Made by a program: the position numbers and the translations under genes
The notes under the pieces: model-generated
Databases searched by the model: none
What the model saw: the letters and a program-made list of their open reading frames with translations, nothing else
Told to the model about the DNA's origin: nothing
IMG/VR virus record: IMGVR_UViG_3300020269_000023
Location: 1-34,065 of that record
DNA from: a virus
Lineage: Duplodnaviria; Caudoviricetes
Reading direction: 5' to 3' (one strand)
DNA length: 34,065 nucleotides
In this document: positions 5,574 through 25,649 of the stretch, piece after piece
Numbering within the stretch: the stretch's first letter is position 1
Layout: each line of letters begins with the position of its first letter

Positions 5574-6512
5574 TTAGGCGACGTTAGTCGCCTTGTTGTT
5601 GTGGTTATCGTTTAAATAATTAATTGCTTGGCTAGATAGACCAAACGCCTTTTTCATTTGGTTGGGTTTATCTTTTAGCATTTTGATCCAACTGTTTAAG
5701 TATTGAGCGTGATCCTCTCGCACTTGTGGAGTAACTCCCAAAGTACAACATAGAATCGCTGATCCAGTTTCTGCTACTAGTTCCTCGAAGGCGTAGTTTT
5801 TCTGCCCCTTTTTAAGTCTATCAAGTCTATGCTTTGCACCAGTCCAGTGTATTAATTCATGTAGCAAAGTCGAATAATAATTCTCTACTTGTGAGCTAGT
5901 AGGCGTATCAGTGAAAGATCCTTTTACTGGCATTTCGATAGTATCGGGTAATGGTTTATAGCAAGGGGTACAATATTCAATATGCTTAATATTTGCATTT
6001 TGACTAGCTACGAATTGATCGACGCTATCAATTGAAAACTCCACGTTTTCGATCTCTGGTTTATCTTGTGTTTGCATGTTTGTCTGCTCAACATTAAAAA
6101 CCTTGTGCCATTTTGAAAATTTCATATAGATTTTTTCTGGGTTGCCAGAACTATCTAGAACTACCTTGCCATTTTCTTTTTTATCAATGAGTATTTTTTC
6201 AAAGTAGCCAACATAAGTCCCTTTCTCGCCTTTATTAATATAAATATTGCGGTCCTTAAAATATTTAAACGTGCCCCAATGATTCGAAGTATACCCTTTT
6301 TTAAGTGACATGATTATTAACCTAAGAAAGTTAAGACCGTTGTACGTTTCACCATTTGATAACTTAGTAGGTAAACCACTAGTTTGACATTGTGTTACTA
6401 ATGGTGCGATCCAGTCACTTCCTTCTTTTTCCATCAATTCAATTAAATCGTTAAATATTGTTTTTTCTATTTCTTCGTTTCTTTTCTTTGCTCTTTCTAT
6501 GTTCTTTTTCAT
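5574..6512 (-). CDS. ardC: ArdC-like anti-restriction protein (ssDNA-binding domain plus zincin-like metallopeptidase domain)
   Basis: N-terminal YNGLN..L, WGTFK and KGEKG motifs. C-terminal TLLHELIHWTG..RLDR..YAFEELVAE. Start placed at MKKNIE behind AAAGGA. Confidence 0.85.
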   Translation of the reverse strand: MKKNIERAKKRNEEIEKTIFNDLIELMEKEGSDWIAPLVTQCQTSGLPTKLSNGETYNGLNFLRLIIMSLKKGYTSNHWGTFKYFKDRNIYINKGEKGTYVGYFEKILIDKKENGKVVLDSSGNPEKIYMKFSKWHKVFNVEQTNMQTQDKPEIENVEFSIDSVDQFVASQNANIKHIEYCTPCYKPLPDTIEMPVKGSFTDTPTSSQVENYYSTLLHELIHWTGAKHRLDRLKKGQKNYAFEELVAETGSAILCCTLGVTPQVREDHAQYLNSWIKMLKDKPNQMKKAFGLSSQAINYLNDNHNNKATNVA

Positions 6513-6555
6513 TGTCTTTCCTTTTAATGTCCTTTTAATATTAAACATAAGTAAA

Positions 6556-6635: not shown

Positions 6636-6735
6636 AGTGGATAAGTTGTGAATAACCTGTGGATAACTTTTAAATTTTTGTGAATAACTTGTGGATAACT
6701 TGTGGATAAGTTACCTGTGGATAACCTGTGGATAA
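6636..6735 (-). repeat. Array of 8 co-oriented DnaA boxes
   Basis: TGTG(G/A)ATAA, the reverse complement of TTAT(C/T)CACA, at 6647, 6658, 6679, 6690, 6701, 6716 and 6727. A 1-mismatch copy lies at 6636. Confidence 0.8.
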
Positions 6736-6796
6736 CTTTTTATGGCCCTACATATAAGTTATTATTAACTTCTTAATACCACTATCTATATAAAAA

Positions 6797-6871
6797 GCCC
6801 GAAGCCCGAAGCCCGAAGCCCGAAGCCCGAAGCCCGAAGCCCGAAAAAAAACCCCGATCCCGAACCCCGAA
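6797..6871 (+). repeat. GCCCGAA heptamer tandem repeat x7 plus degenerate CCCGA copies
   Basis: Seven perfect copies at 6797-6845, then CCCGAT/CCCGAA copies to 6871. Confidence 0.95.
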
Positions 6872-8382: not shown

Positions 8383-8901
8383 TTAAGCCCCGTTATTGTC
8401 CTCAAAAGGTACGGGGCTTACTTTAACCCCGAACCCCGAGTCCCGATCCCGAACACCCCGATCCCGAACCCCGAGTCCCGTTAAATAATCAATTAATCCT
8501 TGATACTTATCCCCATGCCATGAACAAGGAACAACTAGTCCCGATCCCGAACCCGAAGATCCCGAACCTCGAACCCCGACCCGAAGGCCATGCTCCGCTA
8601 ACCCCCGACCCCGAACCCCGTCAAACAAATATAGGGTCGATGATGGGAGGGCCTTAACCAAGAAAAAAGATTCGCCTTTTGACTGTGAAAGGCTATAATG
8701 CCAAGCGATTTGATGTGGTGAAACAGAAACTCGGTGACTTTTAGTAACTTTTAGTTCTAACCAGATTGAATATCCATCGATACAGATATATACATCGGGA
8801 ACACCACCACCGATGCGGTTTTCTATCCGATTTACAAACCAATTTTTAGGCAGATTCTTCTTCAGAGTGTTCCAGAACTGGGCTTCGGGTTGTAGGCTCA
8901 T
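8383..8901 (-). CDS. PD-(D/E)XK nuclease (VRR-NUC / Holliday junction resolvase-like)
   Basis: PEAQFW...RIEN..GGGVPDVY...WLELK catalytic signature. The low-complexity G/S/R tail comes from CCCGA repeats. Confidence 0.8.
   Translation of the reverse strand: MSLQPEAQFWNTLKKNLPKNWFVNRIENRIGGGVPDVYICIDGYSIWLELKVTKSHRVSVSPHQIAWHYSLSQSKGESFFLVKALPSSTLYLFDGVRGRGLAEHGLRVGVRGSGSSGSGSGLVVPCSWHGDKYQGLIDYLTGLGVRDRGVRDRDSGFGVKVSPVPFEDNNGA
8427..8620 (+). repeat. Two clusters of degenerate CCCGA repeats inside the nuclease 3' end
   Basis: About 15 CCCGA copies at 8427-8480 and 8540-8620, in the same orientation as those at 6797-6871. Confidence 0.85.
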
Positions 8902-11747: not shown

Positions 11748-12545
11748 ATGAAACAAAATGATTATAAATTTTTAAATTGGTATTTTTTAGGGTCAGAAAT
11801 AAAAAAGTGCATGGCTATAAAAAGTATTTCTCAACAGGATGTTGCTGATGAGATTCAAAAATCCAGAGCCAGTGTTGCCCTATGGTTTTCAAATTCAGAG
11901 AAGTATGTGCATTTAAATCCAAATTTTGATGAGCTTATTAAAGTAGCGAATCTGTTGCAGCTAAGTGCTGATGATTTAATTTTGTTGTCCAGTAATAAAC
12001 CTTTATCGGAAAAACATAAAAATAATTCAGCTCGAATGCAACGTAACGTCAATCGTTCTTTTAAGGCTAGATTTCGCATGGCATGGTTGAAAAAATTTGA
12101 GACTGATGAGCCTCATTTACTACAGGAACTCACATTTTCCTTGAACAACCAACCAATCGATCCTATTTTTTTCTTGGTAAATCGTCAGGACATAGCATTA
12201 ATTTTCTCGGGAAATAAACCGCGGAAAGGGATATTGCAGAGCTGTATATTTAAAAAACTACAACCTACAAACGAAAAATCAATAGGTGTCATCATGCCAC
12301 CAAGTCCTAGTTTGCGTCCTGAACAGTTGATAGCTTTAAAGAAAGAGGCCGAATTAATGGACCTAAAATTATTCTCTGGCAAACCGAACGGGGCTTTAAT
12401 TAATGAGATAATTAAAACATTTGATAAGAACTCATTAACAAAAAATTACACGATTAAAATTGACAAAAACAATTCTCAAAAATTAAATTCAATTAAATCT
12501 GAATTAATAGAAAAAGGTTTTACAGAAGTTAAGTATGAGCCGTAA
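11748..12545 (+). CDS. XRE/Cro-type HTH protein with an uncharacterised C-terminal domain
   Basis: LGSEIKKCM..ISQQDVADEIQKSRASVALWF..NPNFDELIKVANLL is an XRE HTH pattern. Start placed at ATG 11748. Confidence 0.7.
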   Translation: MKQNDYKFLNWYFLGSEIKKCMAIKSISQQDVADEIQKSRASVALWFSNSEKYVHLNPNFDELIKVANLLQLSADDLILLSSNKPLSEKHKNNSARMQRNVNRSFKARFRMAWLKKFETDEPHLLQELTFSLNNQPIDPIFFLVNRQDIALIFSGNKPRKGILQSCIFKKLQPTNEKSIGVIMPPSPSLRPEQLIALKKEAELMDLKLFSGKPNGALINEIIKTFDKNSLTKNYTIKIDKNNSQKLNSIKSELIEKGFTEVKYEP

Positions 12546-13188
12546 AATTTTACCAATCAAAAGTCATGAAACTTACGATTGGTTATTACTGAAACACTAT
12601 GCAAAACGAATACCCTCGATCTCATTTGCTTTTGGATTGTTCGAGGACAATGTTTTAGAGGGTGTAGTTACCTTTGGCAAACCGCCTTCATCATCGCTGT
12701 GTAAGGGTGTCTGTGGTAATCATAATAGTGAGTATGTGTATGAGCTAAACAGATTATGTTTACAAAGCAATAAACCTAATCAGGCCAGTTACCTCGTAGC
12801 AAATGCCATGAAACAGCTACCTCAACCGACTATAGTTGTAAGCTATGCAGATACTAGCGTGAACCATACTGGCTATATCTATCAGGCTTGTAATTTTATT
12901 TATACTGGGATGAGTGACAAACGCACTGAGTGGCGAGAAAAAAACTCGAACCGCCATAGCAAAACATTATGCGAACAAACTTCTTTGGAAGAGAGAAAAG
13001 CAAACCCGAATAAATATGAGGTCGTTGATCGACCAAGGAAACATCGGTATGTTTATTTTGTGGGCAATAAAACTCAAAAGAAAAATCTTATGAATAGTTT
13101 AAATTATCCTACAGCACCATATCCTAAAGGCGATAATAAAAGATATGATTCAGGGTCCAAGGTAAGTGTTCAGGGAAACTTATTTTAA
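12535..13188 (+). CDS. mom: Mom-like DNA adenine-modification enzyme (GNAT fold)
   Basis: KHY, GVVTFG.P, YELNRL and IVVSYAD...HTGYIYQACNF.YTG motifs of the phage Mu Mom family. Confidence 0.75.
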   Translation: MSRKILPIKSHETYDWLLLKHYAKRIPSISFAFGLFEDNVLEGVVTFGKPPSSSLCKGVCGNHNSEYVYELNRLCLQSNKPNQASYLVANAMKQLPQPTIVVSYADTSVNHTGYIYQACNFIYTGMSDKRTEWREKNSNRHSKTLCEQTSLEERKANPNKYEVVDRPRKHRYVYFVGNKTQKKNLMNSLNYPTAPYPKGDNKRYDSGSKVSVQGNLF

Positions 13189-15485: not shown

Positions 15486-16139
15486 ATGGCAGAAGCAAAA
15501 AAAGCAATTATATTGCAACCAATAACAATAGACACAGTAAGTTTAAGAATAGTTGGAACGTCACCAATTGTACAGCATAAGTGGTCAGAGAAAGCAAAAA
15601 AGATGCTTCGTGACAAACATGCGGGGGTAAAAACTAAAACAAGAGATAAGAGAGATCCAAAGTCCGAGTTTGAGGCTTGTTTATATGTTGGTCAAGAGAC
15701 TAATCAATTTGGAGTACCTTGTAACGCTCTTAAAAACTGTATCATCAACGCAGCCCATAAAGACATTGGCGTAGAGAAGACGCTAATTAGAAAGAGTGTC
15801 TTTATTGAGGCGCAGGATATTGATAAAGACGAAAAGGTTGACATGGTTTTATTTGATACTGCGGATAAACCAGAGATGCGTGAAGACATAGTTAGGGTAG
15901 GGACGGGAACGGCTGACCTACGCTATCGACCAGAATTTAAAAAGTGGTCTATTTTGTTTAACGTGCAAATGAACACTGATGCGATTCAGTTAGATACCTT
16001 TGTCAATTTAGTTAATCTAGCTGGGTTTGGGGTTGGCTTACATGAGATGAGGCCACAAAAGTCAGGAGACTATGGTAGATTTAAGATTGACGAAAATCAT
16101 CTAGTAACAGGCAACAAGCAAACTTTAAAAGGAGATTAA
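15486..16139 (+). CDS. Stand-alone RAMP/Cas7-like RNA-binding protein (putative Vipr-like effector)
   Basis: RAMP-like motif order: beta1 VSLRIVGTSPIV; FGVPCNALKNCI (compare IPGSSLKG); thumb-like REDIVRV; C-terminal glycine-rich loop GFGVGLHEMRPQKSGDYGRF. Sits upstream of a patterned array. Confidence 0.7.
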   Translation: MAEAKKAIILQPITIDTVSLRIVGTSPIVQHKWSEKAKKMLRDKHAGVKTKTRDKRDPKSEFEACLYVGQETNQFGVPCNALKNCIINAAHKDIGVEKTLIRKSVFIEAQDIDKDEKVDMVLFDTADKPEMREDIVRVGTGTADLRYRPEFKKWSILFNVQMNTDAIQLDTFVNLVNLAGFGVGLHEMRPQKSGDYGRFKIDENHLVTGNKQTLKGD

Positions 16140-16142
16140 TTG

Positions 16143-16655
16143 ATGTCAAATTACGTATGGGCGGATACTCGACCAGGTAGTGATTTAAAAAGAACAGGTG
16201 CTGACCCTAACAAGGTCAGTGCCGAGATTCTACAGGTTGACAAAATATATGGTGGCAAGGCTCCTACTGGATCTTATTACGAGTATGTAAAAGATAATCC
16301 AAATGCGGAGGGCTACAAATTATTTGAACACGATGACTCCGTAGCTGCCTACAAACAGAGGCTAGTGCAAGAGCGTGAAATCAAACGATCACTGGTAATT
16401 ATAAAAGCAGAAGTAGTAGAGCGACAATTAGAGGCTCCGATTAGGGCGTTTGTAAACATCAATACGAAAAATTCTGAAGGTAAAACCATAGGGGTTTATT
16501 TTCATATTGATGAAGTGCTTAACGATCCTGAGAAGAGAGCTAAGATGGTAGCTCGAGCAAAGCGTGATGCAGAGAGTTTTATAAAAAAATATAAATGTTT
16601 AGAAGAATTATCAGCAGTAATAGAAAACTTGGAAAAAGTTATTGAGGCAGATTAG
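16143..16655 (+). CDS. Accessory protein of the RAMP-like locus, function unknown
   Basis: GGAGA SD before ATG 16143. Motif LFEHDDSVAAYKQRLVQ.R.I. The last codons overlap the first array unit. Confidence 0.75.
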   Translation: MSNYVWADTRPGSDLKRTGADPNKVSAEILQVDKIYGGKAPTGSYYEYVKDNPNAEGYKLFEHDDSVAAYKQRLVQEREIKRSLVIIKAEVVERQLEAPIRAFVNINTKNSEGKTIGVYFHIDEVLNDPEKRAKMVARAKRDAESFIKKYKCLEELSAVIENLEKVIEAD

Positions 16656-16968
16656 GCGAGTTGGGTTTGGTTGCGTTCTGTTTCGTTAAGTTTTGGCAGG
16701 TGTGGTACGGTCAGTTCTGTTATGTTTCGTTCGGTTGGGTTAAGTTTTGGCAGATAGGTTATGTTAGGTTAAGTTTTGTTCTGGTAAGTTTTGTTTAGTT
16801 TTGGCAGGTGAGTTATGGGACGGTACGTTCGGTTGGGTTAAGTTTTGGCAGGTATGGTAAGTTGTGTTCAGTTCAGTTGCGGTTCGTTGAGTTGGGTTTT
16901 GTTAAGTTTTGGCAGGTGAGGTAAGGTACGGTCTGTTTAGGTAATGTAAGATGGTTTGAGTTTTGGCA
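16646..16968 (+). ncRNA. Array of six putative guide-RNA units: (GTT/GGT-NN)x8-12 delimited by GGCA (VIPR-like)
   Basis: GGCA at 16646, 16695, 16749, 16803, 16847, 16911 and 16965. Between them lie exactly 9, 10, 10, 8, 12 and 10 pentamers. 52 of 59 constant triplets are GTT or GGT. Every unit ends GTTTTGGCA. Confidence 0.8.
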
Positions 16969-16990
16969 GATATGATTAAAGGAAAATATT

Positions 16991-25436: not shown

Positions 25437-25649
25437 ATGCCTGGTATGAGAAAAACTGGTATGCGCGGTGGCGGTATGAAAACTAAAATGAAGCGTGGTG
25501 GTGTTAAAAAAACTGGCATGAAGCGTGGTGGTGTTAAAAAAACTGGCATGAAGCGTGGCGGTGTTAAGAAGACAGGTATGCGCGGTGGCGGTATGAAAAC
25601 TAAAGTCACAATGAAACGTGGCGGTGCTATGAAGAGAAAGAGAAAGTAA
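25437..25649 (+). CDS. Protamine-like K/R/G/M-rich repeat peptide
   Basis: AGGAG SD. MKRGGVKKTG x3 encoded by a 30-nt tandem repeat (25488-25577) with synonymous variation. Confidence 0.8.
   Translation: MPGMRKTGMRGGGMKTKMKRGGVKKTGMKRGGVKKTGMKRGGVKKTGMRGGGMKTKVTMKRGGAMKRKRK

Follow-up and report, generated by a model that had tools for sequence, protein, structure and literature searches.

The closest described system to the locus reported here is the phage-borne type II VIPR of Escherichia phage SUSP1 (PDB 36pp), in which a vipr gene and an accessory gene accompany an array of pentamers, each consisting of a fixed triplet and a variable dinucleotide (NN). According to the published rule, which was experimentally tested, the NN are read with one target base skipped, on the codon wobble position (bioRxiv 2026.04.26.720920). 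The consensus triplet of the scaffold is GGY "or a related consensus", alternative repeats are NNNGG, YNNNG and NNNNG, and a change of GGY to GAY is one of the scaffold alterations with which silencing in SUSP1 was reportedly lost (bioRxiv 2026.04.26.720920). A companion report describes a cryo-EM structure in which residues H17, R138, D177 and R179 of SUSP1 Vipr read the scaffold triplet; W178 stacks on the second G, and R138 and W178 read scaffold position 2 (bioRxiv 2026.04.26.720927). In staggered vrRNA arrays, the end of one unit and the start of the next overlap by 1 nt, as the legend of fig. S18 states (bioRxiv 2026.04.26.720920), and unit lengths are therefore 5n+4. VIPR-like arrays with the triplets GAC, CAC, WGT and TGH are also described in bioRxiv 2026.10.21.760802.

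We analysed a virus record of 34,065 nucleotides (IMGVR_UViG_3300020269_000023; hereafter the window). It very likely carries a VIPR locus, made up of a vipr gene, a candidate accessory gene and a six-unit array. The array likely yields six guide RNAs, which are predicted to direct Vipr filaments against genes of rival mobile elements. The protein family and its fold, the gene layout, the 5n+4 grammar, the conservation of the array in relatives and the exchange of units in register support this reading. An original prediction made from the letters of the window had proposed that the array dinucleotides form a discontinuous code. This code matches the published VIPR rule (bioRxiv 2026.04.26.720920), and a Vipr gene lies at the locus. 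Since the array grammar fits published staggered VIPR arrays, the prediction rediscovered the VIPR code, and its headline claim is therefore not new. In the accessible text of the VIPR papers we did not find a GTT-dominant scaffold, the YDGWALS reading of unit 1 or in-register unit swaps. The main text of bioRxiv 2026.10.21.760802 contains no occurrence of GTT or GKT, which its fig. S10 may show, and the accessible part of bioRxiv 2026.10.15.759431 contains none of "methyltransferase", "HGG" or "staggered". The scaffold or the targets may already be included in figs. S17/S18, data S3/S4 or Evo-PIN S10.

Phage context of the locus

The window encodes a portal protein, a terminase, a primase, a UvrD helicase and a DNA polymerase A. 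The named phages closest to it are HTVC023P, HTVC027P, DSL-LC04 and 023Pt_psg01, with identities of 58-62% for the terminase and 45-47% for the DNA polymerase. Two further genes concern DNA modification and restriction: a Mom-family DNA-modification gene at 12535-13188 on the plus strand (PF25680, E 2.6e-37) and an ArdC-like anti-restriction gene at 5574-6548 on the minus strand (PF08401 and PF18818). After an AT-rich region, the minus strand of a non-coding stretch at 6636-6735 carries eight copies of TTATCCACA, five of them exact and three with one mismatch. We take TTATCCACA to be the DnaA-box consensus, and the repeats are possibly a host-DnaA-dependent origin or a DnaA decoy. Other repeats in the window are a perfect tandem of AAGCCCG (7.3 copies, 6795-6865), related CCCGA-type repeats of 6-7 nt (8425-8585) inside the ORF at 8383-8901, and a 30-nt tandem repeat of 3.6 copies at 25451-25570.

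The vipr gene and the candidate vap gene

The vipr gene (Table 1) encodes a Vipr, a stand-alone RAMP protein with thumb and G-loop that is homologous to the described Viprs. The ORF showed no Pfam or NCBIfam family, and its PHROG match is unnamed. A search with the single sequence matched SUSP1 Vipr weakly (E 0.003). When a profile of 76 out of 338 Vipr homologues (profile A1) was compared with the PDB, SUSP1 Vipr was the sole match at E<=1 (E 2.3e-12, positions 14-195). An AF2 model of the protein (pLDDT 88) had Csm3/Cas7-type RAMPs as structural matches, with TM of about 0.4-0.5. Residues H31, R148, E187 and R189 align with the RNA-reading residues H17, R138, D177 and R179 of SUSP1 Vipr. At the position of the SUSP1 Trp178, in contrast, the window Vipr has a methionine (M188) in the alignment.

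The following ORF is likely the accessory gene vap, and tblastn found homologues of it in 46 of 81 vipr loci. Its product corresponds to phrog_15946, a PHROG of unknown function, lacks credible matches in Pfam and the PDB and retrieved only unnamed viral clusters from Atlas. In comparison with SUSP1, the window accessory gene is set apart by having no match among 50,697 phage records. A structure model made without an alignment reached a pLDDT of 41 and was unusable.

As at the described VIPR loci, vipr and vap stand together without a cas operon, and such loci are mostly viral. The Cas7/Csm3 backbone of class 1 CRISPR resembles the window Vipr in its RAMP fold and in the filament that Vipr is predicted to form on guide RNA. 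Class 1 CRISPR differs in that the window has no repeat-spacer array or cas operon and that the predicted pairing is gapped instead of contiguous. Scanning of 22 ORFs in the window did not reveal a cas gene, the array has no match in Rfam, and its grammar is pentameric throughout, so that the locus does not qualify as CRISPR.

Table 1. Coordinates of the VIPR locus components in the window.
Feature	Position	Strand	Description
vipr	15486..16139	+	217-aa RAMP (Cas7-like) protein with thumb and G-loop
Candidate vap (accessory gene)	16143..16655	+	170 aa; last codons overlap first array junction
Staggered vrRNA-type array	16646..16969	+	six G(T/G)T-NN pentamer units, seven GGCA(G) junctions
Unit 1	16646..16694	+	49 nt, 9 NN
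Unit 2	16695..16748	+	54 nt, 10 NN; final four NN common to unit 4
Unit 3	16749..16802	+	54 nt, 10 NN
Unit 4	16803..16846	+	44 nt, 8 NN
Unit 5	16847..16910	+	64 nt, 12 NN
Unit 6	16911..16964	+	54 nt, 10 NN

Grammar of the array

Re-parsing reproduced exactly the six predicted units (Table 1) and all six NN strings, and returned the same triplet counts (38 GTT, 14 GGT, 3 GAT, and one each of GGC, GGG, TGT and TTT; n = 59). The predicted unbroken phase also held, out-of-register indels being absent from the array. The entropies of the five pentamer positions were 0.21, 1.13, 0.25, 1.95 and 1.90 bits: the first and third are fixed, T or G occupies the second, and the last two are near random. The array consists of tandem pentamers with a fixed triplet and hypervariable NN, as VIPR arrays do. 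Its longest in-phase run comprises 12 pentamers; when the bases of the region were shuffled 2000 times, the mean was 2.3 and no run exceeded 5. A period-5 scan for G(G/T)T over both strands of the whole window retained no second region besides the array. The NN had been described as freely varying; this does not hold for the 3′ ends of the units, where the last NN is TT in all six and the preceding one AA in four of six.

The 4-nt GGCA said to close each unit is present; however, it is followed by G in 7 of 7 cases. Therefore, the junction can be read as a pentamer GGC-AG, its final G at the same time opening the unit that follows. The array has the features of a staggered VIPR array, namely a 1-nt overlap at every junction and tail-less units, all of them 5n+4 in length. 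This arrangement is common to the staggered arrays of the fig. S18 legend, the window and its relatives. The units, of 8-12 pentamers, abut through GGCA(G) and lack the 40-nt pseudoknot tail of SUSP1. The array RNA is predicted to fold no better than shuffles (z +1.19), with no structured 3′ tail. Around the array, no terminator was found and a promoter search gave no clear excess.

GGC is kept in 7/7 junctions, compared with 1/59 inner triplets. The scaffold of SUSP1 is GGY, whereas that of the window is dominated by GTT: only 15 of its 59 triplets are GGY, and just 17 of 59 pentamers have G at scaffold position 2. The alternative VIPR repeats (bioRxiv 2026.04.26.720920) all retain a G that the window array has lost. 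Loss of the middle G has a precedent in bioRxiv 2026.10.21.760802, where divergent triplets likewise occur beside a Vipr-like fold. The locus is of VIPR type in its protein, gene arrangement and array architecture, and departs from the canonical GGY, which the VIPR papers let vary.

Arrays and scaffolds of related loci

The comparison covered 81 viral vipr loci, the best 80 of 302 among them; one locus, L001, is the sequence of the window itself. A caller that rewards GGCA(G) junctions identified arrays with them in 75 of the 81 loci, L001 included, and the printed parses confirm the junction. The array of L021 has the same staggered junctions as the window. In the two nearest relatives (60% identity), GTT accounts for 74% and 56% of the triplets, and the NN strings are unlike those of the window. 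Scaffolds range from GGC through GGT to GTT within one family. Therefore, the GTT of the window is a scaffold variant and comes under the "related consensus" of the published definition.

A neutral GTT-rich microsatellite, or some other non-guide repeat beside an unrelated gene, would account for the low complexity of the array and its lack of an Rfam match. This explanation has a negligible probability, given that a Vipr gene accompanies such an array in 74 of 80 relatives, that no indel is out of register, and that positions 4-5 approach maximal entropy while positions 1 and 3 are fixed. The original prediction had named neutral microsatellite decay, together with a lack of hits above shuffled controls at every gap size, as the result that would overturn it; homology to SUSP1 Vipr, the arrays of the relatives and the entropy profile contradict such decay.

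We also examined the position of SUSP1 Trp178 with a quickly built tree that held 63 proteins, 18 of the 81 loci having been dropped for fewer than 25 called pentamers or an identical protein. Met at this position required four changes on the tree. GTY made up 44-89% of the scaffolds in the window's Met clade versus 0-8% in the neighbouring Trp clade, and 31-41% and 36% in two further Met lineages versus 10-31% in nearby Trp lineages. Exceptions were L056, the fourth Met lineage, with 0% GTY, and L063 and L081 (Trp), with 40%. The GTY share also co-varies with GC content (rho -0.42). In these sequences, a GTT-dominant scaffold tends to accompany Met at the Trp178 position in three of four lineages, a tendency that is not significant and serves as a lead. 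A methionine (Met188) where SUSP1 has its stacking Trp might relax the need for G at position 2 and let GGY drift to GTT, a tentative proposal to which we give somewhat less than an even chance.

In the relative L006 (3610-6268) there are three arrays, and the accessory gene is repeated; the array of L010 (3921-5544) comprises about 300 pentamers and 30 junctions. The guides of L024 and L035 share a run of 10 NN at 54% Vipr identity. Among 309 guides of the relatives, a set outside which unit 1 lies, this was the single shared run of at least 7 NN between proteins less than 80% identical, compared with 0.005 per shuffle. A guide string of the type V-G-V-G-x-I-H-E-G-L-S is common to L036, L041 and L047, at 68-69% Vipr identity.

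Candidate targets of the guides

Read with a 1-nt skip, the first seven NN of unit 1 fit codons for YDGWALS. This pattern gave 116 viral matches, 62 of which read Y[DE]GWALS in frame, on the sense strand and with the skip on codon position 3. The Y[DE]GWALS matches are all in one methyltransferase-like family with DPPY, which has at least 6542 members and weak matches to PF02086 and phrog_1996, and the cluster includes 53 distinct flanks. The collection control for unit 1 was skip 2 alone. It gave at least 120 matches (about 200 estimated), contrary to the expectation in the original prediction that one gap size would stand out by its number of matches; its largest cluster among 120 listed matches consisted of five near-copies. 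Skip 2 is not codon-phased and is therefore a weaker control. Codon-phased patterns also cluster by chance, as with unit 5, for which 9 of 23 matches fell in one unrelated, cellular-looking protein family, a cluster that we took as chance.

The last two NN of unit 1 match in full in 0 of 62 family members, the best common case being 16 of 18 bases (35/62). Most family matches come from DNA of 55-75% GC, compared with 37% for the window phage. Among the best 120 homologues, the two labelled Tara have FDAWALS and YGGWALS. The family is absent from the four named relatives HTVC023P, HTVC027P, DSL-LC04 and 023Pt_psg01, from the L021 contig, from the window and from the vipr loci. In L022, whose Vipr is 57% identical, one unit has the same first seven NN as unit 1 and differs from it at 5/27 scaffold and 1/18 NN bases, differences too few to separate selection from unit transfer. 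On balance, we favour the reading that the conserved YDGWALS codons in a methyltransferase-like viral gene of the DPPY type are the target of unit 1. Aimed in this way, the unit would be a guide of broad range that synonymous changes do not affect.

A guide of L038, which we take to be HGGxSTG-like, served to test the code in the clade as a chosen rather than a blind case. Four of its five matches are in frame in HGGxSTG genes (NF041373), and one agrees at 22 of 22 NN bases, four of which lie outside the search pattern. The predicted 1-nt skip on the wobble position finds support in the first seven NN of unit 1 and in this guide; units 2-6 gave no target in the scans described below. Guides of L030, L034, L037, L038 and L041 read L-H-G-G-x-S-T-G-P-x-T with a 1-nt skip, which contains the HGGxSTG motif.

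The other units did not lead to convincing targets in the sequence sets searched. A self-target scan at skips 0-3 in the 34-kb window, which may be an incomplete genome, performed no better than shuffles. Neither unit 3 nor unit 4 had a target in the window and two protein sets. The exact scan with unit 2 gave two matches without full extension, one in a levivirus-like RNA phage and the other in an unrelated small virus. With up to three mismatches, units 2 and 5 matched 0 of 5 records, including HTVC023P, HTVC027P, DSL-LC04 and 023Pt_psg01. Eight NN of unit 5 gave eight viral matches, none of which extends, and nine NN gave 23 metagenome matches, none of which fully matches the 5′ AT or the 3′ AA-TT. 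A 20-base match of unit 5 in a 61%-GC Chloroflexota MAG was rejected, about one such match being expected by estimate. None of the 21 matches from the exact scan with unit 6 extends; three matches of this unit, antisense in one gene family and with the skip off the wobble position, were set aside. Unit 6 also resembles vipr itself at 15774-15803, in frame and at a sub-threshold 15 of 20 NN bases (16 of 20 in L006), with P 0.015 against order shuffles for one gene and uncorrected. From this likeness, unit 6 could be aimed at a rival vipr. Within 1 Mb of fetched loci, no skip size was enriched for the 309 guides of the relatives, and no further guide among them fits the methyltransferase or Vipr families at the peptide level, tested on every third protein and 40 per family.

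These results bear on whether a functional Vipr here follows a code unlike that of SUSP1, with another skip, one long uncut RNA or RNA targets. Such a code would agree with the lack of a structured 3′ tail, and in the text of bioRxiv 2026.04.26.720920 we found staggered arrays tested neither for the skip rule nor for processing. However, the guides of unit 1 and L038 match in frame solely at skip 1, the skipped base being on the wobble position, and skip 2 produced no family cluster in the collection scans, which covered skips 1 and 2. We therefore consider a different code improbable and retain the one-base skip of SUSP1.

Strain variation and RNA

Half or more of the locus was present in public runs of 14 metagenomes, 12 of them labelled marine or seawater, four of them possible sources of the window DNA. 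In other marine runs, strain contigs agree with the window across vipr, vap and unit 1, as far as 16699-16702, and depart from it in the rest of the array. Over the matching part they contain 16-20 differences per 1.1-1.2 kb, and vipr and vap are about 98-99% conserved. The array was unchanged in run X5. All four fully read strain replacements obey 5n+4; a fifth does so on condition that its 100 unread letters contain one junction. Two runs have an additional complete pentamer after 16806. Some variants retain the 5′ or the 3′ half of a unit, and those of unit 4 keep its 5′ part and differ in the 3′ part, although joints in such low-complexity DNA may be misplaced. The half-unit variants, together with the four NN common to units 2 and 4, suggest in-register exchange. 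New guides may arise in this manner, by exchange of pentamer blocks between units, a route that we judge about evenly balanced.

The variation could also be that of a decaying VIPR array, derived from GGY, in which GTT no longer loads Vipr and slippage drives turnover without selection. The scarcity of the position-2 G, which R138 and W178 read in SUSP1, the failure to find targets for five of the six units and the apparently homogenised 3′ ends point in this direction. However, vipr and vap are intact and conserved among strains, GTT dominance is common to relatives at 60% identity, the junctions keep the GGC that inner triplets have lost, and strain variants stay in register and retain unit 1. 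Decay is therefore very unlikely, and an array in use as a source of guides remains our reading.

In one metatranscriptome, 13 contigs lay on the array, one of them identical over 150 nt (16690-16839). This shows the presence of the array in an RNA library and has no bearing on transcription, strand, ends or level. Among the other RNA runs, X15 gave none, X18 gave one piece, downstream, and X16, with no cover of vipr and vap, provides no evidence either way.

Proposed mechanism and implications

The locus most likely works as follows, the steps of binding and repression being taken from the published work on SUSP1 and P. fulva. The vipr-vap-array operon would be transcribed from the plus strand. 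The array RNA behind vap is probably cut at GGCA(G) into guides of 44-64 nt, the one-base register slip marking the cut that would release six tail-less guides. One Vipr protomer per pentamer would coat the RNA and bury the triplet, and the NN would pair with double-stranded DNA, every third base being skipped. The bound filament would then block transcription of a gene of the rival element. A marine lineage, in phages related to the HTVC023P group, may combine all of the following: a reader with Trp replaced by Met in the G-loop for GUU, tail-less guides cut at the slip, targeting of conserved motifs (YDGWALS and HGGxSTG) and in-register pentamer shuffling. We regard this full combination as speculative and rather unlikely.

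If it is true, a motif-aimed guide would cover a whole gene family, and a route of guide acquisition would be visible without Cas1. Motif-level targeting would explain the payoff of a wobble-blind code, in which one guide serves against many unrelated phages. A residue that sets the scaffold triplet would be useful for orthogonal programmable repressors. The locus makes three questions about VIPR amenable to study in a natural population: how tail-less staggered guides are cut, which residue determines the triplet of the scaffold and where new guides originate.
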